Shown here: positions 5,550 to 48,063 of the stretch, one piece after another
Numbering within the stretch: position 1 is the first letter of the stretch
Layout: each line of letters begins with the position of its first letter
Assembly: GCA_965195285.1 (NCBI GenBank)
Contig: CBDAFS010000061.1
Coordinates: 1 to 64,000, forward strand
Reading direction: 5' to 3'
Length of the DNA stretch: 64,000 nt
Source: an uncultured Aminicenantes bacterium
GTDB lineage: Bacteria; Acidobacteriota; Aminicenantia; UBA2199
Translations under genes and position numbers: made by a program
The notes under the pieces: model-generated
Told to the model about the DNA's origin: nothing
The model's input: only the letters and a program-made list of their open reading frames with translations
The model's database searches: none

Positions 5550-5676
5550 CAGTTTTTTATTAAATCTGAAGTTTATAGAAAAAGTAGCATAAATATTTTT
5601 ATTATTAAATTTACTTATTTCTTAATGGTATAAAACTCGGACTTTTGATATAAAATCATTACAATCCACTAAAAAC

Positions 5677-6738
5677 TTATTTAATATCAGTTATTTTCAA
5701 TAGATTGGGATCAAACTTTAATTTAGTATCATCACTTGGCCCAATTCGATTTGCAAGCACCTTTACATATAAAGTATCTTTATTTTTTTCCTCTAGACTA
5801 ATATCAATAATCAGACTTGCATCATATTCAAGGCCATTCAAATTTCTTAATGAATCATCAATATAATCACTTTTTTCAACATTCTTTTTGTTATGTGAAG
5901 AACGTTGAGACCCCAAAATCAGCGGAAAACTCAATTGATTTGAAAACCTTCTCAAATTCTCAGAAATTATTAATAATTGTTCTTCTCTTATCTTATTTTG
6001 ATCATCCTTTCCAATTTCGATTTTTTGAATAAAATCAATAAATACTGCTCCAATTATAAATGGACCTTTAAACAACTTTATGGATTCAATCAAATCATTT
6101 ACATTATAATTGCTCTCAATTATATGAATTCTGCTTGAAACATCCAGAAAATTCATTAAACCTTTATAAGTGAGATCTTCGCTGGCAAATTTCAATAATT
6201 CTGTTTCAGAAGCTGTTTTTAACTTCCATTTCCATATATCAAAATTGGTTTTTAGTCCTTGTTCAATACTATTTTTATCTAATTTTTCTGAATTTGACGA
6301 ATCAAAGGGTTTCTCTCCAGCAAGGTTAATGAATTTTATCTCACACTCTTTTTTTGCTTCCTGGTAATTGTAGTATAAAAAATGTTTTCCTTTATAAATT
6401 TGAGTCATATTGTAAAGAATATTCATCATAAAAAGAGATTTCCCTTGTTTCGAAGGTCCGGTCACGATTGTGATGGCACCATTTGGAATATTTATTACTT
6501 CATCAAGTTCTTTAAAACCAGTTTTTAAACTCCCTGGTATTCTTTTTATTTCGTTAATGAGCCTTGATAAATCAAAAGGGACAGCATCCTTTAAAAAATT
6601 TCGATTTATTTTAACCAATTCCGCATCTGTTCTCCCTGGAAACATGGTTTTTAACATCTGAGTTTGATCTTCTTGAGTGAATTCTTTATCATTAATCAGT
6701 TGGGTTATATCTTGTTGATCCTCTTTTTTTTCGGACAT
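5677..6738 (-). CDS. DnaB-like (SF4/RecA-fold) ATPase lacking the DnaB N-terminal domain
   Basis: LKTGFKELD, Walker A TGPSKQGKS, Walker B VFIDFIQ, LGSQRS, LEYDASLII, KVLANRIGP. Confidence 0.75.
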   Translation of the reverse strand: MSEKKEDQQDITQLINDKEFTQEDQTQMLKTMFPGRTDAELVKINRNFLKDAVPFDLSRLINEIKRIPGSLKTGFKELDEVINIPNGAITIVTGPSKQGKSLFMMNILYNMTQIYKGKHFLYYNYQEAKKECEIKFINLAGEKPFDSSNSEKLDKNSIEQGLKTNFDIWKWKLKTASETELLKFASEDLTYKGLMNFLDVSSRIHIIESNYNVNDLIESIKLFKGPFIIGAVFIDFIQKIEIGKDDQNKIREEQLLIISENLRRFSNQLSFPLILGSQRSSHNKKNVEKSDYIDDSLRNLNGLEYDASLIIDISLEEKNKDTLYVKVLANRIGPSDDTKLKFDPNLLKITDIK

Positions 6739-6870
6739 TTCTTCTCCTTCTAAAAAAATTATGCTACCATATTAAAATTACTAACTCAAGAACAACATTT
6801 TTAAAAAATCATGATTTATTAATATATGAAGTAAACAACAATTATACATTTTTCAAGAAAACTCATTGTA

Positions 6871-9800: not shown

Positions 9801-11049
9801 TCATGTGATCAAGAAATTTTCTCAATATTTTTAACTCTTCATTGAATGTGATCTTAATACCTTTTATAACACTTGAATTTCTTAATGAAACAAATGTGGA
9901 ATTTGAATGAATATATTTTTTACTTATTAAATGATCTATACTATTAATCTCATTTTTATTAAATATTAAGTGCAATATTTTAATTGGAATTGGAATAAAA
10001 ATAATTAAAAATATTTTCAGAATATTAATTTCACTTTTACTTAGTATAGTATTTCTCTCTTTATAATTTTTTATAAAATACTTTTTAAGTAAATTTTCTG
10101 GCTTTTCATTTAATATAAGATCAAAATCAAGAAAATCATTATTATTAAAGATAATAAGAGTGATATTGGTTAGATTTGAATAATCCATCAAATATTTGAC
10201 AAATTCAATATCTTTTCTATTTTCAAAAGTATCAATTAGTAGCACAATTGACTTAAAAATCGATTTGCTTAAATAAATATCAATTAATTCAACAATACTA
10301 TCAAAATCATCTATTTCATTTATTTTATTAAAAAAGAATTTACATACAACCTTTTGAAGAGAATCAGATTTTCCAATTTTATTTAGTAGAAAAACATCAG
10401 CATGAAGTAAATGCTGAACAATATTTGTTTCAATAATTTTTTTTTGGATTTTGTTTTCTGTTTTTACTAGTATTTTTAAATTTGTTTTATTTTGGGAATG
10501 ATCAAATTCAAATAGATTCAATATATTTGATGCAAAATCACTATATTTATAGAAATAATAACTATTTTCATCAAATCGTTGTTTGTTTAATATACTTTTA
10601 AATATTTCATAATAGTTATCATGATTCAAGTCTTTAAAAAATTTATTGGTAATTAATAAATCAAATATATAACTTAATTTAATCTCACATTTTTTTTCAA
10701 TACAAATCGGAAATTTTAAATTTTCATACTGGTAGATAAATTTTTCAAAATTAATAAAATCAATAGCAAGTTTTTTTGCAATTTCATATATAATTATAAA
10801 TTGAATAAACAACTTCTTAATTTTCGATTCTTTTAGATTTCCAATTACAATTGATTTTGAGGTGTTTAGCCTTTCCAGCCAAATAATAATTTCAAAGTTA
10901 TTGTTTGTGTAATGAATAACTTTCTGAAATAAATTAGAGTGCATATCAAATATTAAATTTATTCTACTAAGTAAAGACTCTGAAAATGGCAATACAAGTT
11001 TATAGAAATTTTTTTCTGAGTAAATATCTTTAAAGTTTTGCTTTTCCAT
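6871..11049 (-). CDS. Large sigma54-dependent enhancer-binding protein with TPR region, AAA+ domain and Fis HTH
   Basis: ITGESGSGKELVA, GAFTGA, LFLDEIGD, FREDLYFR, WQGNIRELE, C-terminal TAEQLKISRVYL; TPR-like helices at about aa 570-790. Confidence 0.9.
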   Translation of the reverse strand: MEKQNFKDIYSEKNFYKLVLPFSESLLSRINLIFDMHSNLFQKVIHYTNNNFEIIIWLERLNTSKSIVIGNLKESKIKKLFIQFIIIYEIAKKLAIDFINFEKFIYQYENLKFPICIEKKCEIKLSYIFDLLITNKFFKDLNHDNYYEIFKSILNKQRFDENSYYFYKYSDFASNILNLFEFDHSQNKTNLKILVKTENKIQKKIIETNIVQHLLHADVFLLNKIGKSDSLQKVVCKFFFNKINEIDDFDSIVELIDIYLSKSIFKSIVLLIDTFENRKDIEFVKYLMDYSNLTNITLIIFNNNDFLDFDLILNEKPENLLKKYFIKNYKERNTILSKSEINILKIFLIIFIPIPIKILHLIFNKNEINSIDHLISKKYIHSNSTFVSLRNSSVIKGIKITFNEELKILRKFLDHMNSSYVKIKYLIKIKNYHEIKVILSDKLFFDNNDEYKYFEEIKSILLNNINSLSDDIELLKLLTIMMINERDLKAAKLIIQKFKTRDHLFFYLKLAFIYKLEKEYIKMESILIKLEKKISICLRDEYCYLKFVFFEKTSDFNSADLYLRRIKNEYYICLSNLQLSDRLIYNGEFEKAKNLLNETIDYLKQENCYSDELEAYTHLAKLLREEGDYNSAEKIYKNIYIKCEIRNYDLLSAFIGVDIGNFYLRLDDFSRAEFWYFKALKVFRAHKNSNGEILVESNLVEINKIKGNWTEAEIYLKSILKYDRDKKLITSLAIDLYNVGHLEYLRRNYPTSLEFVERSLKIFLSNNHLNGIIECVFLKLIINFIQNLHPFNFSVIKKYWKQLNHDQRIIFSIFEKVSSKYFVGKSSLLINDVKALESKNSRFNLIAIIIEKLCLNKYLKELKLLSKELSKRKKNYYYYEYYWVFFNILDDYEGLKTNEREIFIEMYYFFLRNKRTFTQKIITIKKKIDEQNSINDFFKSVELVGKYLNWKIPEDFFSSFLNELTKKIAINFIKLKIFKNKEPIFNFSDSSKYEELSQEIISQTILRADPLNLTLKEIQKEMQSPERFFFPYKNTKVYFWNMSENIFAILLIAFNTERYYNVDIYENFNDLFFKFGSLFSRFYEYEYAYKRKLNFIIGESIPIKILKKKIVKVSKVDFSLLITGESGSGKELVAKAVHLLSKRSNNSFVPVNYSAIPDNLLEAELFGYKKGAFTGANENRIGLIESANMGTLFLDEIGDIPLYLQGKLLRVLQENEIRRLGDNTIHKVDIRLISATNKNLSELINRNQFREDLYFRIQDLTIMVPSLRERMEDISLLIQHFFKKYGFVIEDEIELNGIIEHFKSFRWQGNIRELESHIKRLITFYPDLDDNSFLNKKFDMSLKNAKAEFEKSFIMHALNKKNWSKVQTAEQLKISRVYLFDLIKKYKIKKED

Positions 11050-11273
11050 TGCCTAAAATATACTAATTTTTATAATTGAATAACTTTTTTTAAATTTCTT
11101 TACATTCATTTTTGTTAATTAAATTATTTTAAAAAGTACTAAATATTAATGTCAATATAATTATTTTTATAATTTCTTTTTTTAGGCTACCGCCACTTAT
11201 TCGACCCTAACTTAATCTATCTTTTTTTAAGAATTAAACTTTAAATAATATTTTCTCAAATTCTTTCCATTAT

Positions 11274-11597
11274 TTAAGTAATATCTCCAACAAATTCATG
11301 ATTTGAAAAACATGTAACTTCTAGTTCACCATTATAAAGAGTTTTATGATTTTCAAGAAGACCTATATTTGAAATAAAAAAGATACCAGTTCCATTAGGT
11401 AATGTAGATCCATTTCCCTTTTTACTACAAACAGAAATCAATGAACACTCACCTGATTGTAGAAAAGATGGTTGAGCTAAAAGGATTATAAGTGCATTTT
11501 CATCTTGGACATAAGATAGTGATTTGATGTAATACAAAAATAGTATTATTAAGATAATTGAAACTATTATGTTTTTTATTCTAGTAACTATTTTCAT
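11274..11597 (-). pseudogene. Probable decayed or truncated secreted Ig-like (Big_1/invasin-type) protein
   Basis: Hydrophobic N-terminus, then AQPSFLQSGECSLISVCSKKGNGSTLPNGTGIFFISNIG...NGELEVTC, resembling Big_1 strands; stops after ~107 aa; the downstream sequence is stop-rich. Confidence 0.45.
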
Positions 11598-11647
11598 CCA
11601 ACTTAAACACTTACCATTCAATAAAAACAAGTTCAAGACCCAATATT

Positions 11648-11995
11648 CTACTTTTTTTTTAAAATTCTGTAGTGATGTGGATTTAGTCCATATATTTTTT
11701 TGAATTTGGTCCTGAATTGCTGGCATTTTTTAATTCCGATTTTTTGAGAAATTTGAGTAATGGTAAGATCTTGTCTTGTTTTCAAAAGTGTTTGGGCTTG
11801 CAAAATGCGTACAAAATTAATGTATTCCGACAGTAAAAATTTGGTACCTTTTTTAAATTTTCTCGATAAATAGCAATGATTTACCTCAAATTTACTTGCA
11901 ATCTTGTATACAGTTATTTCAGAAAGTTCAGTTAAATTCATGGTAAGAATATAATCAATAACCCTTGGGACCATATCATTCTTATTCATTTTCAC
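11648..11995 (-). CDS. Stand-alone AraC-family HTH regulator (MarA/SoxS-sized)
   Basis: IASKFEVNHCYLSRKFKK, LTITQISQKIG...FRTKFKKIYGLNPHHYR; GTG start 8 nt after AAGGAG. Confidence 0.85.
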   Translation of the reverse strand: MKMNKNDMVPRVIDYILTMNLTELSEITVYKIASKFEVNHCYLSRKFKKGTKFLLSEYINFVRILQAQTLLKTRQDLTITQISQKIGIKKCQQFRTKFKKIYGLNPHHYRILKKK

Positions 11996-12096
11996 TTAAG
12001 AATCTCCTTACACCAACATAATACAAAACTCCAATTCATATATCCGATTCGATATTTAATATTTTCCCCCTTTTAAAAAGTGGAAAAGTTATATAA

Positions 12097-12282: not shown

Positions 12283-12457
12283 GGGTTTTGGGGAAATCCC
12301 GGTTTCTCTTACCCAATGGTCATGAAACTATTTTTAAAATTGTAGCACTTTGAAACATAGAGAAATCTAAATCAAAATGTCAAGGCCTGGCACTGAAGAT
12401 CAGAATGTCTGCACCTGAGGTTAAGGTAAAGGTTGAGGTGAAGTGAAAAACAGACAT

Positions 12458-12537
12458 GTAGAGGCAAGCGGCGGCTTGCCCTCAATATTGCACAAATATC
12501 GATATTTCAAGCCGGGCGAATTGCCATTCGCCCCTAC
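12458..12537. repeat. GTAG-type REP doublet (REPIN-like), copy 1
   Basis: GTAG-AGGCAAGC-GGCG-GCTTGCCC ... GGGCGAAT-TGCC-ATTCGCCC-CTAC; 77/80 identical to 18834-18913. Confidence 0.85.
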
Positions 12538-12677
12538 TGCAATCCTCTCACGACTAACGATTTATGCCTTTTGATTCACTCAACCCCCAGATCCCATATC
12601 CCAAATCCCTCTTAACCTTTGCCTGTTATTGAGATCAACAAACAAAAACTTGTTTGTCAACCCCTGTCCCCGATAAT

Positions 12678-14129
12678 TTACTGCTGGCTGTGGGTAAAAT
12701 ATATGATGCTTCCGGCTTTGGTAGTTAAATAAATATTACCTTCATAATCCAGAGTGATATCTCCGTAACCTGGCGGTATCTGAAGCGGAATTGAAGGCTC
12801 CCAGGTTGATCCACGATCAATTGAACGACGGTAAAAAGCTCCACCACCGGAGCGATAGTAATAAAGGTTGACATTTCCTGCGTCATCTACGGCCAGTGCG
12901 GCCTGCAGAAAATAACTCGTATGATCTGCCAGGCTCATTACCCCCTGCCAGTTAAGTCCGCCGTTATCGGATCTCCTGAACAAAATATGATATATATTGT
13001 TAATTTGTTCCTCCCAAATGATATATACAGCTCCCAACCTATCAACAGCAATATCAGGATATCTGAACTCAACATCGTTGAAAGACAACATAATCGGATT
13101 TCCCCAACTTACTCCAAAGTCCGGAGAATGGTTAAAAAATATCTGGCTGGAATTAGAAGTAAGACTAGAATCAAGCCATACTACAGAAACCCTTCCACCG
13201 GTATCCACAGCCATTCTCTCCAGTCTGGAATGTTCGGGAGTATTGCTTATATTTACAGGTGCGCTCCAGCTACTTCCAGCATCGTCAGAATGAATAAAAA
13301 AGATATTGCACTCAGCAGTCAACATATAGCTGTTGAATACCACCGCAATTTTGTCAATATTATAGTTGTAAAGTCCAATATCGGAGTATTTGGCATAAAT
13401 GGCAAAATTCCAGGTTAAATTAATCAGAGAACTCCAGGAATCACCCCGGTCAGTGGAGCGCAAAAAATATAGATCATAGAGGCCGTCTGAGGATGTTTGT
13501 CTGGCATAAACGATATTAATATTCGATGTATCAACTGCAATCGCGGGATAAAAGTTTCCCAAATTGCAAGGCTGGGGTAGCTCATGCATCTTAATCCAGG
13601 TTAATCCTAAATCTTCAGATCGAATAAAATACACATAACCTTCAAGGTCAACCGGATCACATTCACCCCAGACAATATTTATATTTTTTTCAAGATCAAC
13701 ATCGATTTTTCCGTTTCTACTGATTGGACAATTCTGAGAAACCTGATCCGAGACCTTAAAATAATTGGGGAAATCATGCAGAAGCTTGACATTGAAATAT
13801 AATGTACCGGATTTTTTACCGCTGACAGTGTCCCAGGCCACAACCGGAATGGACACTCCTCCGGTGGCAATATCCTGGAGAAAGATCCGGCACTGTAACT
13901 CTTCCTCGCTCATGACGACCGTTGATTTCTGGATTCCGTTAAAAACAATAACCGTGCTTTCTGTAAAATTTGCTCCGGTTGCTGTCAGAGTAAAATCGGG
14001 CATATGGTATACCTTGGTGTCCGGTGTTAAAGATGACAAGGTCAGCACCGTATTTGGACAACTAACCAGAATTAACAATAAACCCAATCCAATAATAGAC
14101 AATACAGCTTTATGCATTTTTCGCTTCAT
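12678..14129 (-). CDS. Lipoprotein with IPT/TIG-like domain and BNR/Asp-box (sialidase-fold) beta-propeller, paralog A
   Basis: Lipobox LVSC; FTLTATGANF...VIVFNG; six Asp-boxes (RSEDLGLTW, RSTDRGDSW, HSDDAGSSW, HSPDFGVSW, RSDNGGLNW, RSIDRGSTW). Confidence 0.85.
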   Translation of the reverse strand: MKRKMHKAVLSIIGLGLLLILVSCPNTVLTLSSLTPDTKVYHMPDFTLTATGANFTESTVIVFNGIQKSTVVMSEEELQCRIFLQDIATGGVSIPVVAWDTVSGKKSGTLYFNVKLLHDFPNYFKVSDQVSQNCPISRNGKIDVDLEKNINIVWGECDPVDLEGYVYFIRSEDLGLTWIKMHELPQPCNLGNFYPAIAVDTSNINIVYARQTSSDGLYDLYFLRSTDRGDSWSSLINLTWNFAIYAKYSDIGLYNYNIDKIAVVFNSYMLTAECNIFFIHSDDAGSSWSAPVNISNTPEHSRLERMAVDTGGRVSVVWLDSSLTSNSSQIFFNHSPDFGVSWGNPIMLSFNDVEFRYPDIAVDRLGAVYIIWEEQINNIYHILFRRSDNGGLNWQGVMSLADHTSYFLQAALAVDDAGNVNLYYYRSGGGAFYRRSIDRGSTWEPSIPLQIPPGYGDITLDYEGNIYLTTKAGSIIYFTHSQQ

Positions 14130-14196
14130 TTTGATTCCCCCTATATAAATATTAAGTTAATTCCTGTTTGTTTCAAAAAAAATATATCCTGCACTC

Positions 14197-14266
14197 CACC
14201 TTTATCTTTACCTTTACCTGAGATTTAGGTCATAGAGCATGATATCATTTGTCAAGGCCTGACCTT
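14197..14266 (+). repeat. ~70-bp direct repeat, second copy at 17130-17201
   Basis: CCTTTATCTTTACCTTTACCTGAGATT...AGAGCAT...CATTTGTCAAGGCCTG occurs upstream of both IPT-BNR paralogs. Confidence 0.8.
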
Positions 14267-14271
14267 GATAT

Positions 14272-15366
14272 CTAATAAGGCTTAAAGGCGATGCCTAAGA
14301 TTTTATCCGGTGATGCCGGAAATGTGGTGACCAGTGACCAGTTTATCCCGTCAATGGAATCCATAACCAACCCCTCACCGGAAGCAGTATACCCGATTGC
14401 AACAAATTTGTTTCCTCCAAAAACAACATCATTTATACCAAAACCACCTGCGATAGCTGGGGCAGTTCCTTCCTGCCAGGTAATCCCTCCATTAAGGGAA
14501 TACCAGACCAATCCTTGCCCAGTAATCACCCATTTTCCATTGCCATAGGCCACTCCCATCAAATGTTCAACTAAATCTGTTGCCGGAGTTGCTGCTGTCC
14601 AGCCGGCTCCATTGTCTGAATAAACAATGGTCGCAAACATTCCAACCGCAACAAAGCGGCCGTTTCCATATCCTACTCCCCATAAGGTCTCAGAGGTCCT
14701 TCCTGAAGAAGCCCCATACCAGTTATCCCCTCCGTCCTGGGACCAGATAATATTGTGTACGATTACCGGGGGATTAATGTCCGGTGGCTGAGGATCTACA
14801 TCGCCCACCGCCACAAAACGGCTTACGCTATTTCCCTGTATAACCACTGTACCGAAAGCGACCATATTTAAATCCGTTGTTGTTTGGGTATCCGAAGCCA
14901 GAGTCCAGTCAACCCCGCCGTTGGTAGAAAAATAAGCCATACCGTCAGTCCCAACCGCCACGTAATGGGCGACCCAGGGCTGGGTCCAGGTATTGCTTTC
15001 TCCGCCGGCAATACCCCAAAAAACTCCACACCCATAAGTATTTCCCCGGGTCCAGGTCATGCCATCCTCAGAAAAATACACACCCTTATCTGAACCCACC
15101 GCAACAAAGCGGTCATAATAATAGGTTATATTGGTTAAAGACGAATCGTTAACATAATAACTATTGGTACTATCCCAGACCGTCCCATCTTCCGAGCTTT
15201 GCAGTACGCCGCTATCAACATTGATTTGACCGGAAACACCGCTAACAATGACAAAATGGACTTCAAAATCATCCCCCGGATCGCAGGCTGAAAATAAAAA
15301 ACAACAGGTCACACTAAAAACGATTAGAATATACTTAATAAAACCGTAATTTTTAATTTTTCCCAT
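14272..15366 (-). CDS. Lipoprotein with WD40/YVTN/BNR-like (Ycf48-like) beta-propeller repeats
   Basis: Lipobox FSAC; repeats such as VGYGNGRFVAVG...YSDNGAGWT and SEDGMTWT. Confidence 0.85.
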   Translation of the reverse strand: MGKIKNYGFIKYILIVFSVTCCFLFSACDPGDDFEVHFVIVSGVSGQINVDSGVLQSSEDGTVWDSTNSYYVNDSSLTNITYYYDRFVAVGSDKGVYFSEDGMTWTRGNTYGCGVFWGIAGGESNTWTQPWVAHYVAVGTDGMAYFSTNGGVDWTLASDTQTTTDLNMVAFGTVVIQGNSVSRFVAVGDVDPQPPDINPPVIVHNIIWSQDGGDNWYGASSGRTSETLWGVGYGNGRFVAVGMFATIVYSDNGAGWTAATPATDLVEHLMGVAYGNGKWVITGQGLVWYSLNGGITWQEGTAPAIAGGFGINDVVFGGNKFVAIGYTASGEGLVMDSIDGINWSLVTTFPASPDKILGIAFKPY

Positions 15367-15594
15367 ATTTCCCTCCCTTTCTTTTTATTATAAATAAAAT
15401 AAAGCAATTTTTCAACAAGAATGAAATAGACGCCACTCCTTTATTGAATAAAAAAGCAGCGACCGTCCCACACCCTCACATCCCATGTTTGTCAAGGCCT
15501 GGCCCTGCTGGGTGAATGAGTCAATGGGCGGATGGGTTAAAACTGAGGTTAAGTTCAATGAGCACGATTCTATTTGTCAAGCCCTGACCCTTTT

Positions 15595-17061
15595 TTACTG
15601 CTGGCTGTATATAAAATAGATGGAGTTACCGCTCACGATAGTCAAATAAATATTTCCTTCATCATCCAGAGTGATGTCACCGCTGCCCGGTGGCGGCAAC
15701 GGCATAGAGATCGCCGGTTCCCAGTTTCTGCCGCGATCAATTGAACGCCTGAAAAAACAGCCGTCGCTATTGTAGTAATACAAATTTACATTTCCGGCAG
15801 TGTCGGCGGCAATGACTGCCTGCATCGAATTACTCGAATTTTCTGCAAGGCTCACCGGTGCTGTCCAGGTATTGCCGTCATCATCCGAATGTCTAAATGA
15901 AACAGTGTATATATTATTATCTCCTTTCTGTTCCACCCATACCGCATAAACACACCCGGGCTCTCCGACTTCGACATCGGGGTATCTGAATTCAACAGGG
16001 TTGTAAGACAGCAACATCGGATTTCCCCAGGTTGCTCCAAAATCCGGAGAATGATTAAAGAATGTTTCTTTAGAATTAGTACCGGAAATATTATCCAGCC
16101 ACACCACATAAATTTCTCCCCCGGTATCTACAGCCATTCTTTCCAGCCTGGAATGTTCCGCAGTATCGTTTACTTTTACCGGCAAACTCCACGAAGCTCC
16201 GCTGTTACTGGAATGGACAAAATAGATGTCGCATTGGGCACTCCACATATAGCTGTTGAATACCACCGCTATATTTTCAACATTATTGTATTCGCTAATT
16301 TTAATATCGGAATATTTGGCATAACTTGTATATCCCGATGTCACATTCAGGGGAACGGTCCAGTGGATTCCCTCCCCCTCCTGGGAGCGCAAAAAATACA
16401 GGTCATAGGTGCCGTCTGAGGTTGTCTGCTTGGCATAAACGATATTAATATTCAACGATCTGTCAACTGCAATCGCAGGATAAAAGTTGCCCAAATTCGC
16501 AGGCTGGGGTATCTCCTGGCTATTGATCCAGGTTAATCCTAAATCTTCCGAACGAATAAAATAGACATAACCTTCCCCATCAGGCGGTTGGCCTTCCTCC
16601 CAGACAACGTTGACGTTTTTTTCATAATCCACTGCAATTTTAGCGCTGCGAGTGATAGGGCAATATTGGGAAAGGCTTGAGCTTGCCCGTACAGGACCGG
16701 AAAACGTATGCACCTGCTCGACCCTAAAGTACAAGGTATTGGATTCATTACCGCTGACTGTATCTCTTACCACAACCTGGAGGGACGCCCCCCCGATGGC
16801 AATATCCTGGGGATAGATCTGGCAATTTAACTCTGTGCTGCTCACAAAGACCGTTGTTTTCTGGATTCCGTCAAAAACAATAACCGTATCCGATGAAAAA
16901 TCAGTCCCGGTAGCTGTCAGGGTAAATTCGGGCATATGGTATACCTTTGTGTCCGGTGTCAACAATGACAGGGTCGGCACCGGATTGGGACAATTTATCA
17001 AAACAATAACCAAACTCAACCAGAATAAAGATAGAAAAATCTTTTTAATTTTTGTTTTCAT
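15595..17061 (-). CDS. Lipoprotein with IPT/TIG-like domain and BNR/Asp-box beta-propeller, paralog B
   Basis: Colinear with 12678-14129 over its whole length (LTPDTKVYHMP, GYVYFIRSEDLGLTWI, EHSRLERMAVDTGG, final SQQ). Confidence 0.85.
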   Translation of the reverse strand: MKTKIKKIFLSLFWLSLVIVLINCPNPVPTLSLLTPDTKVYHMPEFTLTATGTDFSSDTVIVFDGIQKTTVFVSSTELNCQIYPQDIAIGGASLQVVVRDTVSGNESNTLYFRVEQVHTFSGPVRASSSLSQYCPITRSAKIAVDYEKNVNVVWEEGQPPDGEGYVYFIRSEDLGLTWINSQEIPQPANLGNFYPAIAVDRSLNINIVYAKQTTSDGTYDLYFLRSQEGEGIHWTVPLNVTSGYTSYAKYSDIKISEYNNVENIAVVFNSYMWSAQCDIYFVHSSNSGASWSLPVKVNDTAEHSRLERMAVDTGGEIYVVWLDNISGTNSKETFFNHSPDFGATWGNPMLLSYNPVEFRYPDVEVGEPGCVYAVWVEQKGDNNIYTVSFRHSDDDGNTWTAPVSLAENSSNSMQAVIAADTAGNVNLYYYNSDGCFFRRSIDRGRNWEPAISMPLPPPGSGDITLDDEGNIYLTIVSGNSIYFIYSQQ

Positions 17062-17366
17062 TCTTTCCTCCCCAATGAATAATAATAATGTAAATCCTAT
17101 ATAATAACAACAATAAAACGTTCTTCACTTTACCTTTATCTTTACCTTTACCTGAGATTAAGGATCACAGAGCATAAAACCATTTGTCAAGGCCTGGCCC
17201 CAGAAGAGGTCGATGGGTGAATGAGTCAATGAGTGGATGGGTTAAAACTGAGGTTAAGGTAAAGGCTGAGGTGAAGTAAGAAATCGATTCGTAACTCCAA
17301 TTCAGTACTTGAATTTTTTTTATTGAAATGATATAAAGAAATCAGAGAATAACTTGGGAGGGGAAA

Positions 17367-18380
17367 ATGAATTTAAAATTTTTCGTAGTTGTAATTTTGA
17401 GCTTTTTATTGATATGCTGCTCAACAATTGATTCGGAAGAGAATGATGAACCACAGGTGTCAACATCAAAGGTTGTGGTATTTGATAATTTTGATCCGGA
17501 TTACAACAATCCGCCATTCGGGGATAAAGTAACCATCATGAACACAGATGGGCTTGTCGAAAACACAATTACCGGATTCAATAATTGCCAGAATGTCGGC
17601 GGTAACCGGGTACTATCGGTTTCCGATGATGGTCAGAGCTTTGTCGTCTGCGAAATGGTGACCTACAGCGATCAAAAAATATCCAAGTATGATATTTCCG
17701 GAAACCTGATTCTCAGTATCCCAGGAAATTTCACCTCGGTCAGTATGCATGACAACTTCATATATGCGTTCAGCGGCCATACCATTTCTGTATACACGAT
17801 GTACAAAATTGATGCATCCGGCAATATTATTATCCAAAATGAAGTGGGGCAATTTGACCATGTTGTCGATCCGATAAACGAGGTTTTGTGGACCGTTGGC
17901 GGCCTAATCTTAAAAGCAGATCTGAATCTGAATGAACTGATGAGGACTGATCCCATAAACTGGTGTGCCGTCTCGGTTGATGTGAATACGGATGGTTCGA
18001 TATGGGTGGCTGAAAGAAAACATCCTGAAGTGGCAGGAAGCGAGAACAGGTTATTGAAGATTTCCCCCTCTGGCGAAACCCTTCAGGTAATTGATCAGGA
18101 TTCATATCCGATGTGTATACGCGTCAATAAATCCACCGGTAATTTCTGGGCAACCGGAGAATTTGGACTAAAAAAATTCGATCCGCTCGGCAATGAAATC
18201 ATTTCAATTACCGAACTTAGAGGCTTTACCATTGCCATTGATCCTTTTGACAATTCAATTTGGGTAGGATGTTGGGGTAATGTTCGGCACTATTCCAGTG
18301 ACGGTTTGCAACTTGGTATTTATACCGATGGATTTTCAATTGATGATCAGAAACGGGTAGGCATAGCCGTCTCCAATTGA
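17367..18380 (+). CDS. Lipoprotein with NHL/YVTN-like beta-propeller
   Basis: Signal peptide ending LLICC; repeats such as AVSVDVNTDGSIWVAE and IAIDPFDNSIWVG. Confidence 0.75.
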   Translation: MNLKFFVVVILSFLLICCSTIDSEENDEPQVSTSKVVVFDNFDPDYNNPPFGDKVTIMNTDGLVENTITGFNNCQNVGGNRVLSVSDDGQSFVVCEMVTYSDQKISKYDISGNLILSIPGNFTSVSMHDNFIYAFSGHTISVYTMYKIDASGNIIIQNEVGQFDHVVDPINEVLWTVGGLILKADLNLNELMRTDPINWCAVSVDVNTDGSIWVAERKHPEVAGSENRLLKISPSGETLQVIDQDSYPMCIRVNKSTGNFWATGEFGLKKFDPLGNEIISITELRGFTIAIDPFDNSIWVGCWGNVRHYSSDGLQLGIYTDGFSIDDQKRVGIAVSN

Positions 18381-18390
18381 TAAAATGATG

Positions 18391-18412
18391 ATCAGGTCTT
18401 TCATTATTGACA
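18391..18412 (+). repeat. RAYT left-end-like site ATCAGGTCTTTCATTATTGACA
   Basis: TCAGgTCTTTCATTAT matches the RAYT inverted repeat TCAGtTCTTTCATTAT at 15/16; 10 bp after the stop at 18380. Confidence 0.7.
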
Positions 18413-18833
18413 TGAGTGGCTGAGAGCTGAGAGGATAAGAAGTTCTGAAGTCAAGAACAAAACAACTTGTTATTCAGTTGTAATTCAATAGTAACTCATA
18501 GTAATTCAGTTGTCATAAATAGTTTTTACAATAGAATTACCATGAATAACGCGAGTGCAACGAGCAAATTACCACGAATTACCATTCACGGCTTACGCCT
18601 TACGACTCACGATTTTTGCTTCTTGATTCACAAGCCCCCAACCCCTAAATCCCAAATCCCGCTTTACCTTTACCTCAGATTAAGGGGGGTAGTCATTAGG
18701 GTCGGTTCTTGAATCTTGAATTTGATTCAATTTGTCAAGGCCTGGCACTTTGGGTAAATGGGAACATGAGTCAATGGGTGGATGGGTTAAGGACTAGGAA
18801 AAGGTATAGGTTTAGGTAAAGAGAAATTGAAAT

Positions 18834-18913
18834 GTAGGGGCAAGCGGCGGCTTGCCCTCAATATTGCATAAATATCGATATTTCAAGCCGGGCGAATTAC
18901 CATTCGCCCCTAC
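18834..18913. repeat. GTAG-type REP doublet (REPIN-like), copy 2
   Basis: GTAGGGGCAAGCGGCGGCTTGCCC...GGGCGAATTACCATTCGCCCCTAC. Confidence 0.85.
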
Positions 18914-19031
18914 AGCTTCTCATCAACACATCTACCCATCTTCCAATTCACGAGTCAGCAAAATATCATTGCTGGGTGCAGGTGGCTTGATGCTGAGGTA
19001 AAGGCAAATGTAAAGTAAAATCGCCCTCTTC

Positions 19032-19466
19032 TTAGATTTTTGTTGCTGTCCAGGTTCCTGATTCAGCACCACCACAACCGACTCCTCCTGTATAACTTAT
19101 TGTCATTGTTCCATTCATGGAGGTGTCAGAGATTGAAGTTCCATCCCAGATCCAAACAACATGACAGGGTTCATCATTATAAAAATCCCAATTTACCTGA
19201 ACCGTGTTGCAATCGCTAACCGTGTAGATACCTGCATTGCCCTCGACGTATTTCATTCCGCTGACAGTACCGCCGGTTGAACTTCCGGAAAAGGTAAGAG
19301 TATGATTATCAGGCCAAACTTCTGCATCATCCCAATCCCAGAGCACAGTAACATTCCAGGTTCCGGTAATATCGAATGTACAGTCATCGGCAGTTGAACA
19401 ACCCGGATGATAAACCAACCCTAAAAAAACAATAAAATAGAGTAAAACCCTAAGCGTTAATTTCAT
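19032..19466 (-). CDS. Small beta-rich lipoprotein, YDIxGTW family (copy 2)
   Basis: RBS GGAGGAGG before ATG 19466; signal peptide ending HPGC; FDITGTW...SMNG...GTWTATK. Confidence 0.8.
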   Translation of the reverse strand: MKLTLRVLLYFIVFLGLVYHPGCSTADDCTFDITGTWNVTVLWDWDDAEVWPDNHTLTFSGSSTGGTVSGMKYVEGNAGIYTVSDCNTVQVNWDFYNDEPCHVVWIWDGTSISDTSMNGTMTISYTGGVGCGGAESGTWTATKI

Positions 19467-19738
19467 TTCTCCTCCTCCAGGCAATAATTTGATTACCTGC
19501 AAACACATTCCAAAATACTTACAATCCTATTTTAATTAATCAACAATAATTTTTCAAGTACAGAAAAACAGAATCGCCAATGGTCAATGGGGTCAGTGAA
19601 TCTCCTACTTCTATATATTTATTACGTTTTTCTAAAAATAAATGGATAAAGAAATCCGGGTAGAAGTAACCTTGACAATCCGGGATTAAAGGTGATAATG
19701 ATTATCTTATATCAAATCAATAACGGAGGAAAACTGAA

Positions 19739-20185
19739 ATGCCTTTATATATCCTTTATGCGGTTTTGGCCGGGATTGCCTGGGGTGTTGGCGGTTATTT
19801 TGAAAAAACGGGTTTAAAGGAAATCGGACTTCCGCCAATTGTCGGAATCGCCCTGCGGACAGCAGTTGCCCTGATTATCCTGGGACTGCTTTCCATTCCT
19901 GCCTGGCAAGCCATAAACAAATCCGCGGGCATCAAATCCTGGCTGATGATTATCATCGGGGGCGGGATTATTGCCGGCAGCCTGGGAATGTGGTGTTTTT
20001 ATTCCTCCCTGTCGCTCTCGGATAACCTGGGAATCACACTGGCCATTGCCTTTGCCTTCTCCCCCATTGCCGGGACCGTCACCGGCCTGCTCAAGGGCAA
20101 TCAGCACATGGATCTGAAAACCGGCCTGGGACTGATTTCAATTGTTTTCGGGATTATCCTCATCCAGCTCTCCCATAAAACATAG
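19739..20185 (+). CDS. EamA/DMT-family small membrane transporter (single repeat)
   Basis: Five hydrophobic segments; AWGVGGYFEKTGL...ALRT pattern. Confidence 0.8.
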   Translation: MPLYILYAVLAGIAWGVGGYFEKTGLKEIGLPPIVGIALRTAVALIILGLLSIPAWQAINKSAGIKSWLMIIIGGGIIAGSLGMWCFYSSLSLSDNLGITLAIAFAFSPIAGTVTGLLKGNQHMDLKTGLGLISIVFGIILIQLSHKT

Positions 20186-20511
20186 AATCCCATCAGACCA
20201 TATCTAACTTTATTTGGCCTGCATTGCAAAAGTAAAGGCATGGCACCATTAGCTAAATGAGTCTATGGGTCAATGGGTGGACGGGGGAGAAATTGTAATA
20301 GATCCGTTTGTTGACGTCCTGCCTTCCCCATCTACCCATTCACTCTTCTTCCCATTTACGAGTTAAAGATTCAGTACAATAAAACCATTATGTAAAGGCA
20401 TGTCCCCCCAGAGGTCGATGGGGGAATGAGTCAATGAGTAAATGGGTTAATGGGTGAATGAGTTAAGGACCAGGAAAAGGTATAGGTTAAGGTAAAGTGA
20501 AAAATGGACAG

Positions 20512-20558
20512 GTAGGGGCAAACGGCGGGTTGACGGGCGAATTGCCATTCGCCCCTAC
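20512..20558. repeat. GTAG-type REP doublet, internally deleted copy 3
   Basis: GTAGGGGCAAACGGCGGGTTGAC joined to GGGCGAATTGCCATTCGCCCCTAC. Confidence 0.75.
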
Positions 20559-20703
20559 AGCCTCCCATCAACTCATCTTCTCATCTACTAGTTAGAAGAA
20601 TTCTGCTGCTGGAAGCTGGTGGCTGAGGTAAAGGTAAAGGTAAAGTAACATTTATCCTTATGCTCCATCTTCAAGCTGCAAAACACATGACCTGATTGCT
20701 TTT

Positions 20704-20961
20704 TTATTTCTTATAGATAATCTTGAAAATAAACAAGGTGAGGGCCAGTAAGAATTCGATTATTCCGAAAACAGCCAGCGGTACAATCCTATTCACTATC
20801 CCATAAACCACCCATAGAGACAATCCGGACATCAATATGACGGTCCAGACCGTGGAAATATCCCTGGCCGATCTTGTTCTCCAGGTTTTTATTACCTGTG
20901 GAGACAAGGAGACAGCTACCAAAAAACCGGCAATATACCCAACAATCTCAATCTTATACAT
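20704..20961 (-). CDS. SemiSWEET / PQ-loop (MtN3) sugar transporter
   Basis: 85 aa; SLSPQVIKTWRTRSARDIS and LWVVYG motifs. Confidence 0.88.
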   Translation of the reverse strand: MYKIEIVGYIAGFLVAVSLSPQVIKTWRTRSARDISTVWTVILMSGLSLWVVYGIVNRIVPLAVFGIIEFLLALTLFIFKIIYKK

Positions 20962-21154
20962 TGTTTTAATTCCCCTTTTTTGTGTAATCCTCAATTTCGG
21001 CTTATTTCCACTCATTATACCAGACTGTAAGTTTGGAATCTAATAAAATATTGTCAAGGGATACCAGATTTAATTTTTTTAGCAAAACCCTATTTGTTAA
21101 GGCCTGTCCCCTTCTTGCTTTTGACAAAATCACATTTTTCATTTATATAGTTAA

Positions 21155-21949
21155 ATGGAATCCTTTTTTATTTTAAAAGTCCTGGTATCCTTCATTGCAG
21201 CCGGGATATGGATCGGCAGCGTCACCCTCATTGCCGAAAGACTCGGCAGCAAACGGGGCGGCCTCATAGCCAACCTCCCCTCCACTGTCCTGATTGCTCT
21301 GGTATTTGTGGGACTGGTCAACGATGCCGGATTTGCTGCCCTGGCCACCCGGGCCGTACCGGTCGGAATGACCATTGATACAATTTTTTTGATGGTGTTT
21401 ATCATCCTGCTGAAGAAAAGTCTGGTGACAGCCGTGCTGCTTTCCCTCTCAACCTGGATGGTTCTGGCATATACAGCCGGACAGATTCATTGCAGCAGCA
21501 TGGTCTTCACTATCCTTGTTTATTTTCTGGTGGCAATAACCTCATTTTTAATTCTGGAATACAGATTTGAAATCCCGTCCAAAGGAAAAAGTCGGAAAAA
21601 ATTCACTCCTATAAATTCCATGGTGAGGGCCCTGTTTGCCGGCAGTGTGGTGGCCGGTACCACCATCATCTCTGCCTTTGCCGGCACCTACTGGGTCGGA
21701 CTGTTTTCCACTTTTCCGGCTGTCATGCTATCCACCATGGTTATTTTAACACTGAATCAGGGTAAGGCCTTTGCCCGGGCAACCGGAAAAGTCATGATCC
21801 TGGCTTCAACCAATATTATCATCTATGCCCTGGGTGTATCCATCACCTACCCTTTGCTGGGCATTACCCTCGGAACCATTATTTCCTTTGTTTTCTCATT
21901 CTTCTGGGTATTGTTGCTGCACCCGCTGATCAATAAAATCATCAAATAA
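21155..21949 (+). CDS. Polytopic membrane protein (DUF3147-like, internally duplicated)
   Basis: IAERLGSKRGGLIANLPS and the second-half GLFSTFPAV; about eight TM segments. Confidence 0.65.
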   Translation: MESFFILKVLVSFIAAGIWIGSVTLIAERLGSKRGGLIANLPSTVLIALVFVGLVNDAGFAALATRAVPVGMTIDTIFLMVFIILLKKSLVTAVLLSLSTWMVLAYTAGQIHCSSMVFTILVYFLVAITSFLILEYRFEIPSKGKSRKKFTPINSMVRALFAGSVVAGTTIISAFAGTYWVGLFSTFPAVMLSTMVILTLNQGKAFARATGKVMILASTNIIIYALGVSITYPLLGITLGTIISFVFSFFWVLLLHPLINKIIK

Positions 21950-21998
21950 TAATTTGTATTTGTTTGAAAATCATATATATTATTTAGTGGAGGGAAAC

Positions 21999-22406
21999 AT
22001 GAAAAGGAAATTATGGATTATGTTAATGATTATTCCCTTGCTGGCATTCCTGTTTCAGGCCGGATGCAAAACCGAGGAAGAGACCATAACCGAAGCCCAG
22101 TATGACATCACCGGCACCTGGCAGGTGACTACAACCTGGACATCACTGGATGTAACCCTGGCTAATCCTCCCGGCACCTATGCCATTACTTTCGAGGGAA
22201 GTGTTACCAACGGGATATTTTCAACCAGCAATAATGAAACCGGAATCTATCTGGTAATCGGTACGGTGGTTCAATGGATATTTTCTTATGGCGCTGTTTA
22301 CACCGGAAATTTTACCGATGACTCCACAATGACGGGTGAAATGGTAGGCAATTACGGTGCCACCGGCACCTGGAATGCCGTCAAATCAAACCAGAGTACA
22401 TTATAA
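21999..22406 (+). CDS. Small beta-rich lipoprotein, YDIxGTW family (copy 3)
   Basis: RBS GGAGG; lipobox QAGC; CKTEEE...YDITGTW...TMTG...GTWNAVK. Confidence 0.8.
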   Translation: MKRKLWIMLMIIPLLAFLFQAGCKTEEETITEAQYDITGTWQVTTTWTSLDVTLANPPGTYAITFEGSVTNGIFSTSNNETGIYLVIGTVVQWIFSYGAVYTGNFTDDSTMTGEMVGNYGATGTWNAVKSNQSTL

Positions 22407-47126: not shown

Positions 47127-48063
47127 TGGGGTCAGTTCTTTCATTATAGCGTTTTTTTTAGTATACTTGCTTCATGGCTAGACCATTAAGAATTGAATTC
47201 CCCGGTGCTGTGTACCATATTACAACCAGAGGTAATGAAAAAAAGGCAATATTCAGGAATGATCGGGATCGAGAAAGATTTATTGAAATTCTATCACTGG
47301 TTGTTAAGAGATTTAAATGGATATGTCATTCATACTGTTTAATGGACAATCACTATCATCTATTAATTGAGACACCAACAGCAAATTTATCGAGAGGTAT
47401 GAAGCAGTTAAATGGGATTTATACCCAGAGTTTTAATCGTATACATAACAGAGTTGGACATTTGTTTCAAGGTAGATATAAATCGATTTTAATAGAGAAG
47501 GAATCATATCTGCTTGTATTGAGTAGATATATGGTGTTAAATCCAGTGAGAGCAGGTGATGTAAATCATCCGGGAGAATGGCCCTGGAGCAGTTATGGTG
47601 CAATAATTGAAGAAGTGAAAAAACCTGATTTTTTAACTGTTGATTGGATATTGTCACAGTTTTCCTCAGACAAAAAAAAGGCTGTGGAAGAATATGAACT
47701 ATTTATCATATCAGGTTATAAGACAGGGTTTCCATATAATGAATTAGTCGGACAAATTTTATTGGGTAGTGAAGGGTTTATAAAGAAGGTGAATGGTTAT
47801 GTAAGTCAAGAATCAAGAAATAATATGAAAGAGGTGCCCAGAGAACAACAACTCAGTATATCGACAACACTGGATGAAATATTTCAGAAGAATACGAGAA
47901 AAGGTGTCACAAGGAATAAGATAATCTGCGAGATATATCACAATAACGATTTTACAATGAAGGAAATCGGTGATTATTTAGGATTGCACTACACGACTAT
48001 TAGTAGAATTATAAACAGTTATGAGAAGAAGAAAAAAATGCTATAATGAAAGAACTGACCCCA
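47127..48063 (+). mobile_element. RAYT-like Y1 HUH transposase element bounded by perfect 24-bp terminal inverted repeats
   Basis: TGGGGTCAGTTCTTTCATTATAGC (47127-47150) and GCTATAATGAAAGAACTGACCCCA (48040-48063); visibly more AT-rich than its flanks; no obvious target duplication. Confidence 0.85.
47174..48046 (+). CDS. rayT: REP-associated tyrosine transposase (RAYT, Y1_Tnp) with C-terminal HTH
   Basis: MARPLRIEFPGAVYHITTRGN, HUH motif LMDNHYHLL, GHLFQGRYKS, catalytic Tyr in SRYMVLNPVRAG, WSSY; HTH TMKEIGDYLGLHYTTISR. Confidence 0.92.
   Translation: MARPLRIEFPGAVYHITTRGNEKKAIFRNDRDRERFIEILSLVVKRFKWICHSYCLMDNHYHLLIETPTANLSRGMKQLNGIYTQSFNRIHNRVGHLFQGRYKSILIEKESYLLVLSRYMVLNPVRAGDVNHPGEWPWSSYGAIIEEVKKPDFLTVDWILSQFSSDKKKAVEEYELFIISGYKTGFPYNELVGQILLGSEGFIKKVNGYVSQESRNNMKEVPREQQLSISTTLDEIFQKNTRKGVTRNKIICEIYHNNDFTMKEIGDYLGLHYTTISRIINSYEKKKKML

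Follow-up and report, generated by a model that had tools for sequence, protein, structure and literature searches.

The question raised by this locus is what ten short sequences, all on one strand and all between genes, represent in a single stretch of lipoprotein and small-transporter genes, and how they came to be there. The window, that is the whole stretch of DNA analyzed, is 64,000 nt long. A first-pass annotation had read the sites as the punctuation of an integron-like cassette array, in which a RAYT enzyme acting in trans may capture and stack single genes, and had known of no description of this architecture. The ten sites are real, and they are stray copies of the ends of TIRYT elements, piled up in a fast-changing stretch of surface-protein genes.

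At three mismatches or fewer, TGTCAAGGCCTGNCCCC matches the 64-kb window nine times (starts at 12378, 12655, 14250, 15490, 15575, 17185, 18733, 20391 and 21095), always on the + strand and between 12378 and 21111. The chance expectation is 0.34, and nine matches were reached in 0 of 100 shuffles. The tenth site, AGTAAAGGCATGGCACC at 20231, has four mismatches and is found by a profile of the other nine only at an E value of 7.2. All ten lie between the long ORFs of the window, which agrees with the annotation, and the clustering extends to the genome scale. Here, the exact 12-mer TGTCAAGGCCTG occurs six times in the whole 3.28-Mb genome, five of these in the 12378–21111 array, and the family as a whole, called A-type below, has seven copies at two mismatches or fewer, again with five in the array. 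In a genome-wide scan with the nine-site profile, which the annotation had called for, nine of the ten best matches fall in the array locus. The features are collected in the table; the composite spacer at 18733..19030 ends 1 bp before the stop codon of 19032–19508(-). Rfam and tRNA scans of the window gave no matches, and searches of genome contigs and metagenome contigs found no relatives of the 488-aa protein.

Table. Features of the array and the complete TIRtron of the window; A-type denotes the family of the array motif.
Positions	Strand	Feature	Basis
12378..12394	+	A-type TIR, solo; head of 300-bp composite spacer 12378–12677	motif scan, profile
12655..12671	+	A-type TIR, solo; 6 bp from stop of 12678–14129(-); left edge of duplicated unit	
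12678..14129	-	BNR/TIG lipoprotein 1, 483 aa, 61% identical to 15595–17061	
14250..14266	+	A-type TIR, solo; 5 bp from stop of 14272–15366(-); duplicated-unit similarity ends at its last letters	
14272..15366	-	exported Asp-box-like protein, 364 aa, without detectable similarity to neighbours	
15490..15506	+	solo A-type TIR with 8-mer repeats after it	
15575..15591	+	A-type TIR, solo; 3 bp from stop of 15595–17061(-)	
15595..17061	-	BNR/TIG lipoprotein 2, 488 aa	
17185..17201	+	solo A-type TIR without mismatches, within divergent spacer; then 8-mer and 6-mer repeats	
17367..18380	+	exported protein, 337 aa, without family match	
18389..18405	+	degenerate solo TIR of a different family (GGGTCAGGTCTTTCATT type), reads TGATCAGGTCTTTCATT; 8 bp past stop 18380	
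18733..19030	+	composite spacer: A-type TIR 18733–18749, 8-mers, 6-mers, GTAG-tagged hairpin pair 18834–18913, reversed 8-mers, 6-mers	
19032..19508	-	lipoprotein, 158 aa, multi-copy family; G001 homologue in another genome slot	
19739..20185	+	EamA-domain membrane protein, 148 aa	
20231..20247	+	A-type site, degenerate (4 mismatches); 8-mer repeats alongside	
20391..20650	+	composite spacer: A-type TIR 20391–20407, 8-mers, 6-mers, hairpin element 20512–20558, reversed 8-mers, 6-mers	
20704..21015	-	SemiSWEET transporter, 103 aa	
21095..21111	+	A-type TIR, solo; 9 nt upstream of TTGACA-17-TATATA promoter of 21155–21949(+)	
47128..48062	+	complete TIRtron with TIRs of a different family; 47174–48046 is its TIRYT gene	Y1_Tnp domain

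The array motif is the terminal inverted repeat (TIR) of a TIRYT, the Y1-HUH transposase of a “TIRtron”. In two Verrucomicrobiota MAGs (L094 and L110), a Y1_Tnp gene lies between inverted copies of the 16-mer TGTCAAGGCCTGACCCC, and the TIRYT stop codon falls inside the right-hand copy. These two loci come from a motif scan of genome contigs that returned at least 120 stretches; 80 loci were examined, and a flanked Y1_Tnp gene was seen at 2 of the 80. The kinship with RAYT-element ends that had been proposed for the sites is borne out by this shared 16-mer, and also by their build, which resembles the ends of the genome's own diverged TIRYT paralogs (TGTCAAG-N4-GTCCCC). A TIRYT flanked by the array motif was found only in other phyla and not in the present genome or the class loci examined: no TIRYT with A-type ends was found in the assembly, and no TIRYT stands beside the A-type sites at 27 loci of the class, each covering about 3 kb or less around the site (17 of 339 genomes; some site rows in overlapping loci, 5 loci cut by a contig end).

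The repeats and TIRYT genes of this genome resemble TIRtrons as given in passages of PMC3733652 and PMC6006769, where a RAYT-like Y1-HUH gene with an HTH tail lies between non-palindromic inverted ends with the tag GGGGWSAS, a genome holds a number of paralogs that differ in their ends, and moderately abundant end families occur as singles, pairs and clusters. Read from the minus strand, the outer ends of three of the ten sites carry the tag exactly (GGGGACAG at 12655, 20391 and 21095). The other seven do not fit the 8-mer: AGGGTCAG at 15575, AAGGTCAG at 14250, GGGGCCAG at 17185, AGGGCCAG at 15490, AGTGCCAG at both 12378 and 18733, and GGTGCCAT at 20231. Since solo, paired and clustered TIRtron repeats were described in 2013 (Di Nocera, De Gregorio and Rocco; passages of PMC3733652), the view that the architecture is undescribed is not supported. 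TIRYTs correspond to TnpA-Y1 subclass 2.1 of Quentin et al. 2018 (PMC6006769). What differs from these known TIRtrons is that the A-type family has no enzyme gene in the genome, and that 9–10 of its copies, every one of them between accessory genes, share a single orientation over 9 kb. The phylum of this genome is not among the TIRtron hosts named in those passages of PMC3733652 and PMC6006769, which describe the end repeats of TIRYT/RAYT-type transposases without a role.

The genome is otherwise rich in such elements. Among 18 TIRYT-like places examined, 13 have ORFs of at least 290 aa and at least 12 have inverted ends of their own (for example TGTCAAGCAACGTCCCC and TGTAAAGCACCGTCCCC). The TIRYTs with ends closest to the array motif are on contigs C12, C26 and C47. 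One TIRYT lies in the window, where the gene at 47174–48046 keeps its HuH and Y...NP motifs, by reading of the sequence, and stands between the arms of a perfect 17-bp inverted repeat (GGGGTCAGTTCTTTCAT at 47128–47144, ATGAAAGAACTGACCCC at 48046–48062). The era-ileS slot around this element differs in content from that of the congener G001, with no definable empty site. The other TIR families have 3–25 copies on 2–16 contigs (11 of 13 other patterns, 8–25 copies on 6–16 contigs) and are dispersed through the genome, whereas the A-type family is clustered. One of them reaches into the array: of the two variant sites that had been reported beyond stop codons, the one at 18389–18405 (TGATCAGGTCTTTCATT) shares 15 of 17 letters with the C3 copy of another TIR family in our reading of the alignments and is a degenerate copy of that family, but the one before 20704 shares only about 7 letters and was not counted. 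The spacing to stop codons claimed for the minus-strand genes 12678, 14272 and 15595 was measured at the same 6, 5 and 3 bp. This closeness is, however, not peculiar to the array. Counted over TIR copies, what lies beyond the outer end is a convergent stop in 93 cases and a co-directional start in 61, and 11 non-A TIR rows (10 places, one counted under two families) have a stop within 12 bp; closeness to stop codons is a general TIR feature, common to the other families.

The sites could also be compared with REP sequences, which they resemble in being short, intergenic and linked with a Y1 transposase that has been domesticated, and in lying mostly after gene ends, often in mosaic clusters (Bertels and Rainey 2011, PMC3116915; Ton-Hoang et al. 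2012, PMC3333891). REPs are GTAG/CGTC hairpins of 20–40 nt, GTAG-tagged and usually in inverted pairs, whereas the array sites are unfolded and all direct. When eight site modules were folded as DNA, six were no better than shuffles (z from -2.7 to +2.0 over the eight) and no common stem appeared; unlike REPs, the sites are not self-complementary. A different module of the same spacers does have the REP form, with two hairpins at 12455–12540 (-17.9 kcal/mol, z -2.9) and GTAG-tagged hairpin pairs within 12458–12537 and 18834–18913. Hairpin, terminator and attC readings of the sites were discarded for want of a terminator-like fold in the site modules.

The likeness to integrons (IntI, attI, attC) lies in single genes parted by a recurring short site of one orientation, with content that varies among relatives. 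In contrast to integrons, the array has no integrase, its genes lie on both strands with their own promoters, and no attC-like imperfect palindrome was found among the eight folded modules. The tyrosine recombinase family PF00589 has six matches in the genome and none on contig C61, and no integron integrase (TIGR02249) scores over cut-off in the genome. Integron cassettes are excised and inserted as units of site plus gene, a movement that is hypothetical for the array. An IS200/IS605-type unit was likewise not seen, with no subterminal hairpins at the sites and no transposase remnant inside the array, where the search for TIRYT sequence gave weak matches only (best E 0.044). A candidate remnant at about 19650–19757(-), in which NHYHL-stop can be read and which several paralogs touch, was not accepted (E 0.44 or worse).

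Comparison within the array and with relatives indicates how the sites accumulated. The paralogous BNR gene pair is duplicated from site to site: similarity between the flanks of the two genes begins at one site core and halts at the last letters of the next site, and the two units are one local duplication. The composite spacers match one another at 68–89% over 118–273 nt, better than anything elsewhere in the genome, and the 300-bp spacers appear from these matches to be local copies. Overall, the array looks like a local amplification. Four independent structural edges lie within a few letters of a site's outer (CCCC) end, namely 14266, 17201, 21116 in the comparison with the congener G003, whose similarity begins there, near the outer end of site 21095, and the exchange 20231->20392 in runs X2 and X3. 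The contigs of these two runs do not cover 12360–14258 at 90% likeness and none joins across it, a gap compatible with either presence or absence of gene 12678–14129 in that population. Two joints that could pass for deletions (14232->18735 and 12389->17221) were rejected, as the letters they carry correspond to a variant module or to the paralogous spacer of contig C1.

We therefore favor, with a probability of roughly 0.6, the reading that the sites are solo TIRtron TIR copies and that their local pile-up is mostly due to ordinary DNA turnover, with recombination and duplication rather than a transposase as the probable builder of the array. The source is a TIRtron, a RAYT-like Y1-HUH tyrosine transposase gene (TIRYT) between non-palindromic ends with the GGGGWSAS tag. 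Diverged TIRYT paralogs are numerous in the genome, and every paralog has a separate family of end copies that are dispersed; the A-type family is one whose own enzyme gene is missing from the assembly. Its copies are parts of mosaic spacers that also contain tandem repeats of 6-mers and 8-mers as well as paired GTAG-tagged hairpins, and the lipoprotein and small-transporter genes around them form a plastic stretch. Turnover may then have acted in two ways, by duplication of whole units from one site to the next and by copying or exchange of 100–300-bp composite spacers, with the short repeats as join points. REP sequences are known to act as join points in such turnover, and work attributed to Shyamala et al. 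in 1990 reportedly found them at the joins of duplications. Several observations count against this reading. Exact identity between sites is short (12–17 nt, or 47 nt at lower identity), which makes them a poor substrate for RecA-type recombination, and no recombination intermediates were observed. In addition, edges at the outer CCCC ends are also expected from a site-specific process, and one gene has TIRs of different families before it in the genomes G000 and G001, where the conserved block ends.

These points bear on the idea that a TIRYT in trans shuffles site-plus-gene units among solo sites, in the manner of an integron without a recombinase. Here, the enzyme would nick one strand at the GGGG end, run to the next identical site of the same orientation and rejoin, yielding a single-stranded circle of one site and one gene; re-entry at any solo site would stack or move units. 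HUH elements of the rolling-circle type (IS91/ISCR and Helitrons) do move neighbouring genes, and an HUH enzyme could carry along the DNA between two site copies by starting at one and stopping at the following one. The enzymes of rolling-circle elements contain two tyrosines or helicase domains, the ori and ter ends of the elements are distinct, and we know of no such gene-moving activity for TIRYTs. The single orientation of the sites, their placement between genes and the duplicated site-to-site unit are all consistent with shuffling, as are the 13 full-length TIRYT ORFs of the genome, with the catalytic motifs retained in the window copy, and members of the small-lipoprotein family that occupy different slots in congeners. 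Further support comes from same-family, same-orientation TIR neighbours 300–4000 bp apart, of which there are nine, five outside the array, against 1.84 on average and 7 at most over 2000 shuffles of family labels, a count uncorrected for local duplication. Elsewhere in the genome, some of these pairs enclose one exported-protein gene each (C26 1168/1789, C15 120075/121249, C31 171969/173210). This excess is why shuffling is retained as a reading, but we consider it quite unlikely. The array locus is absent or different in G001, gene content differs between congeners and several breakpoints do fall at site ends, yet the variable slots are not bracketed by sites as cassettes require: the G003 gene that replaces the 21018–21115 segment has no A-type site at either edge, the moved lipoprotein gene in G001 lies between copies of the comF 3' end instead of TIRs, and the G001 homologue of the bracketed C15 unit has no TIRs. 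Capture and stacking by a RAYT in trans, as first proposed, stays hypothetical, given that no TIRYT with A-type ends exists in the assembly, that no circle or empty-site joint was found among the joints listed for the contigs of four runs (joints with sides under 30 disregarded), and that the two units are one duplication.

For the role of TIRYT/RAYT-type transposases this genome is an unusually rich case, with about 18 paralog loci, at least a dozen end families, one enzyme-less family stacked between variable surface-protein genes, and more single genes between ends of the same family than expected, an excess that can be measured. If shuffling were true, it would be a recombinase-free, HUH-based counterpart of integrons that moves surface-lipoprotein and small-transporter genes among many slots. 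If even part of the bracketing excess is made by an enzyme, uncultured sediment bacteria would have a new way to shuffle genes, and biochemistry would gain a concrete substrate. Otherwise, the locus clearly illustrates how short repeats serve as join points where a surface-protein region is plastic.

Import of the 9-kb stretch, or of its spacers, from a relative with A-type as its dominant TIR family and a matching TIRYT would account for both the clustering and the absent enzyme, and it suits the G001 comparison. We judge it very unlikely, as the G+C content of the array (0.41–0.44) equals the genome mean (0.42), A-type copies are scattered in all three congeners, and the other modules of the spacers are genome-wide families.

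Finally, the sites may be selected regulatory DNA or RNA, either an operator upstream of promoters, bound by a TIRYT tail or another DNA-binding factor, or a 3'-flank barrier or stabiliser of minus-strand messages, so that their spread would reflect co-option and not mobility. A-like sites outside the array do, by reading, precede good sigma-70-type promoters of the same orientation by 5–60 nt (C25:4623, C34:64589, C20:45188 and C41:36154), as does site 21095 in the window, and sites in the congeners are placed likewise (G001 L041, G002 L042, G003 L190). The TIRs of TIRYT genes also sit directly upstream of the gene start, and contigs from RNA libraries span sites 15575 and 18733, which is not proof of transcription. 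Nevertheless, regulation is an unlikely explanation of the array, where five sites adjoin the 3' ends of genes and are not followed by a promoter, no terminator-like fold exists at the sites, and the homologous genes of G001 lack the site. A minus-strand sigma-70 promoter was kept only as a part of this regulatory reading: the sites contain TTGACA, but most copies have no usable -10 after it, only 12383 and 21100 pass the scan, and the genes' own promoters (14176, 15415, 17110 and 19557) are nearer the start. A sigma-54 promoter was set aside, TGGCAC being present in three sites only and GC ten letters after GG in none. As a separate observation, the window encodes a sigma-54 activator of 1392 aa at 6871–11049.

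The 17-bp site repeated across the array (12378-21111) is the solo terminal inverted repeat (TIR) of a TIRtron family, a transposon type in which a gene for a RAYT-like Y1-HUH transposase (TIRYT) is flanked by inverted ends. Di Nocera et al. (2013, PMC3733652) describe RAYT-like genes with long non-REP inverted repeats on both sides, in which GGGGWSAS is often shared, as well as "moderately abundant families of TIRs" that occur as singles, dimers and clusters. In Quentin et al. (2018, PMC6006769), TIRYTs are the same as TnpA-Y1 subclass 2.1, which carries an HTH tail. This TIRtron/TIRYT arrangement is seen at most of the TIRYT places examined in the window's own genome (G000; 3.28 Mb, 62 contigs, G+C 0.42), and solo TIRs are a known kind of repeat.

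The window's RAYT-like protein matches about 19 places in the genome (tblastn), each at 57% identity or less, with full-length paralogs at 32–41%. ORFs of at least 290 aa are present at 13 of the 18 TIRYT places examined, and at least 12 of the 18 have inverted ends of their own, for example GGGGTCAGTTCTTTCAT/ATGAAAGAACTGACCCC, ...TGTCAAGCAACGTCCCC, ...TGTAAAGCACCGTCCCC and ...TGTCAAGCACCGTCACCC. The window's gene (47174-48046) is flanked by perfect 17-bp inverted repeats. The array motif is built like the paralog ends: TGTCAAG, four letters, then GTCCCC. Scanning genome contigs for TGTCAAGGCCTGNCCC returned at least 120 stretches; the 80 loci examined are mostly chance matches or ferredoxin coding sequence, and two of them (L094 and L110, from Verrucomicrobiota MAGs) carry a Y1_Tnp gene between inverted copies of exactly TGTCAAGGCCTGNCCC, the right-hand copy containing the gene's stop codon. 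Therefore, the array motif is a genuine TIRYT end. In Desulfobacterota MAGs, TGTCAAGGCCTGNCCC solos occur at several loci and an inverted doublet at one. None of the 18 TIRYT places examined in the G000 assembly has array-type ends. GGGNCAGGCCTTGACA is present in 17 of 339 genomes of the class, at 27 places, and no TIRYT match lies within these loci, stretches of up to about 3 kb surrounding each site.

At up to three mismatches, TGTCAAGGCCTGNCCCC occurs nine times in the window, always on the plus strand; 0.34 copies are expected from shuffling, and nine was reached in 0 of 100 shuffles. The first-pass annotation had counted ten same-strand sites, and the strand bias is borne out for these nine, while the tenth, at 20231, is weaker, with four mismatches and a profile match of E 7.2. 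The gaps of 6, 5 and 3 bp that it gave between sites and the stops at 12678, 14272 and 15595 are right. The sites are uniformly plus because five of the seven array genes have minus orientation.

Features of the array and of other TIR-bracketed genes (window coordinates unless a G000 contig, C, is named)
Feature	Position	Strand	Remarks
A-type sites	12378, 12655, 14250, 15490, 15575, 17185, 18733, 20391, 21095	+	TGTCAAGGCCTGNCCCC, up to 3 mismatches
Composite spacers	12378-12677, 18733-19030, 20391-20650		about 300 bp
Tandem repeats (examples)	14193-14222, 17121-17156, 20623-20650		
BNR/TIG lipoprotein	12678-14129	-	paralog of 15595-17061, 61% identical
Exported protein, 364 aa	14272-15366	-	unrelated to its neighbours
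BNR/TIG lipoprotein	15595-17061	-	paralog of 12678-14129, 61% identical
Gene without family match	17367-18380	+	
Lipoprotein, 158 aa	19032-19508	-	multi-copy family
EamA-domain protein	19739-20185	+	
SemiSWEET	20704-21015	-	
DUF3147	21155-21949	+	
Lipoprotein, 143 aa	C26		bracketed by same-family TIRs
Exported protein, 341 aa	C15:120 kb		bracketed by same-family TIRs
Lipoprotein, 372 aa	C31:172 kb		bracketed by same-family TIRs

An exact 12-mer of the site has six copies genome-wide, five of them within the array; with one mismatch allowed there are 27, seven in the array. At up to two mismatches, the array's TIR family has seven genome copies (five in the array), and other families have 3–25 copies on 2–16 contigs, with 11 of the 13 other TIR patterns at 8–25 copies on 6–16 contigs. 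Because these other families are spread over many contigs, clustering is the odd feature of the array's family. Closeness to gene ends is not peculiar to it. Stops are found within 12 bp of eleven non-A TIR rows (10 places, one of which is counted for two families). Across all families, the outer (CCCC) end of the TIR faces a convergent stop in 93 cases and a co-directional start in 61; all of these counts rest on crude, self-made ORF calls. Same-strand TIR solos also form a second run at C31:162-171 kb, where each is 2–24 bp away from a minus-strand gene's stop. Beyond the array, the site is often found 5–60 nt upstream of what we read as good promoters, which would suit a regulatory role, an explanation that we consider unlikely. 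The end of the window's TIRtron, ATGAAAGAACTGACCCC, has about 25 copies in G000 and its sister type ATGCAAGACCTGACCCC about 23; REPIN-like inverted doublets of these types, 30–50 bp apart, lie at C49 8975/9023, C54 302/350 and C31 81037/81069.

Each 17-mer heads a larger module, including a 47-nt one (family D6). The site modules gave no fold, and the hairpin element of the spacers folds. Composite spacers comprise the site, 8-mer repeats, 6-mer (GGTAAA) repeats, GTAG-tagged hairpin pair, reversed 8-mers and 6-mers, and their best matches are one another (89% over 118 nt, 68% over 273 nt). At 12458-12537, 18834-18913 and 20512-20558 lie pairs of strong hairpins that carry GTAG at their outer end and CTAC at their other end (GTAGGGGC...GCCCCTAC); they are REP dimers of the classic GTAG-tagged type, and the genome has 22 copies of one arm. 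Many spacers of the genome are filled with tandem 6-mers (GGTAAA and variants; 112 matches of a 14-mer, one mismatch allowed) and ATGGGTGA-like 8-mers, which often flank other modules as inverted arms.

The two BNR units, each a BNR/TIG gene with its adjoining sites, are alike from the site core (12655 / 15575) through gene, promoter and 6-mers as far as the final letters of the following site (14266 / 17201), where the likeness stops. We propose, with a probability of about 0.6, that the array arose mainly from local duplication and from exchange of spacer modules and site-to-site units. Here, spacer modules would be exchanged locally within a plastic surface-protein region and units running from site to site would be duplicated locally. 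REPs are known to behave in this way, and Shyamala and colleagues reportedly described them in 1990 as join points of tandem duplications.

The first-pass annotation had instead proposed that a RAYT acting in trans may capture, stack or shuffle single-gene cassettes there. Such cassette shuffling is mechanistically reasonable, since an HUH enzyme could begin at one site, finish at the next and go back in at a solo. It is also compatible both with the edges at site ends and with an excess of same-family TIR brackets: among 138 TIR-like sites (12 families), nine neighbour pairs 300–4000 bp apart share family and orientation, five of them outside the array locus, whereas 2000 label shuffles, which leave local duplication uncorrected, averaged 1.84 and never exceeded 7. 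The DNA between such pairs usually holds one exported-protein gene. However, no enzyme, junction or clean empty site was found for it, and at the variable slots of two congeners, G003 and G001, the brackets that it predicts are missing; we regard it as quite improbable. No TIRYT remnant was found in the array, no tyrosine recombinase on the window's contig and no integron integrase above cut-off in the genome. Same-orientation TIR solos bracketing accessory genes are not described in the papers found on TIRYT/TIRtron/REPtron, the supplementary tables of PMC3733652 and PMC6006769 aside, nor in those listed for RAYTs together with gene cassettes or integrons, which deal with other matters. A 67-aa open frame at C60:32019-32204 resembles the C-terminal end of the integron-integrase model (98 bits, below cut-off) and may be a tyrosine recombinase fragment. 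The HuH region of several TIRYT paralogs weakly matches 19650-19757 (-) in the window (tblastn, E 0.44 or worse), which reads NHYHL-stop and overlaps the EamA gene's TTGACA-16-GATAAT promoter; this likeness may have arisen by chance or may mark a tiny relic.

Identity is 90–97% in the congener G003 and about 75% in the congener G001. Before SemiSWEET, G003 has a 173-aa paralog of the 158-aa lipoprotein (36% identical, reversed), with no EamA gene adjoining and with spacers of the array's module type on both sides. Its likeness upstream of DUF3147 starts at 21116, 5 nt past the site; a TonB-dependent receptor gene lies there instead, without such a site. ORF 21954-22406 (150 aa) is absent from G003, a clean 425-bp difference from 21975 to 22400; in G001 the ORF is found on the opposite side of the S46 peptidase gene. 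In G001 the array genes are spread over different contigs, without the sites. There, the 158-aa gene's homologue and its promoter follow a comF-like gene and are enclosed by two copies of the 3' end of that comF-like gene. Before the G001 homologue of the C31:172 kb gene stands a TIR of the window's type, in place of the other family found in G000, and the two genomes become similar 2 nt past the G000 TIR; the C15:120 kb gene's homologue in G001 has no TIRs and different neighbours.

Contigs from two sequencing runs of another study (X2, X3) span 14259-17160 and 18469-21349 at about 99% identity and begin or end at site modules. They show an exchange of site 20231 with site 20392, and their 6-mer repeats carry a 42-bp change; this comparison was made at 90% likeness and calls for caution. 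Sites 15575 and 18733 are covered by RNA-library contigs, coverage that is not proof of transcription.

Upstream, 3821-12000 is an 8-kb stretch of 22–28% G+C (genome, 42%) encoding OppB/OppC-like permeases, a DnaB-like protein, a 1392-aa TPR/sigma-54 activator and a 115-aa AraC-type HTH protein. Since G001 has this stretch too, at 66–79% identity, a recent import is excluded. Outside the window (C15:50560-53620 of G000; L036 3780-5460), the slot after a comF-like gene has the look of site-specific insertion repeated at the 3' end of a gene, and no integrase lies close by. In G000 it is an array of a lipoprotein gene (-), a comF 3'-end copy, a complete TIRtron, a near-identical 87-bp copy, a second lipoprotein gene (-) and a diverged copy. 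The counterpart slot in G001 holds other genes, also parted by a 50–75-bp copy of the comF end.
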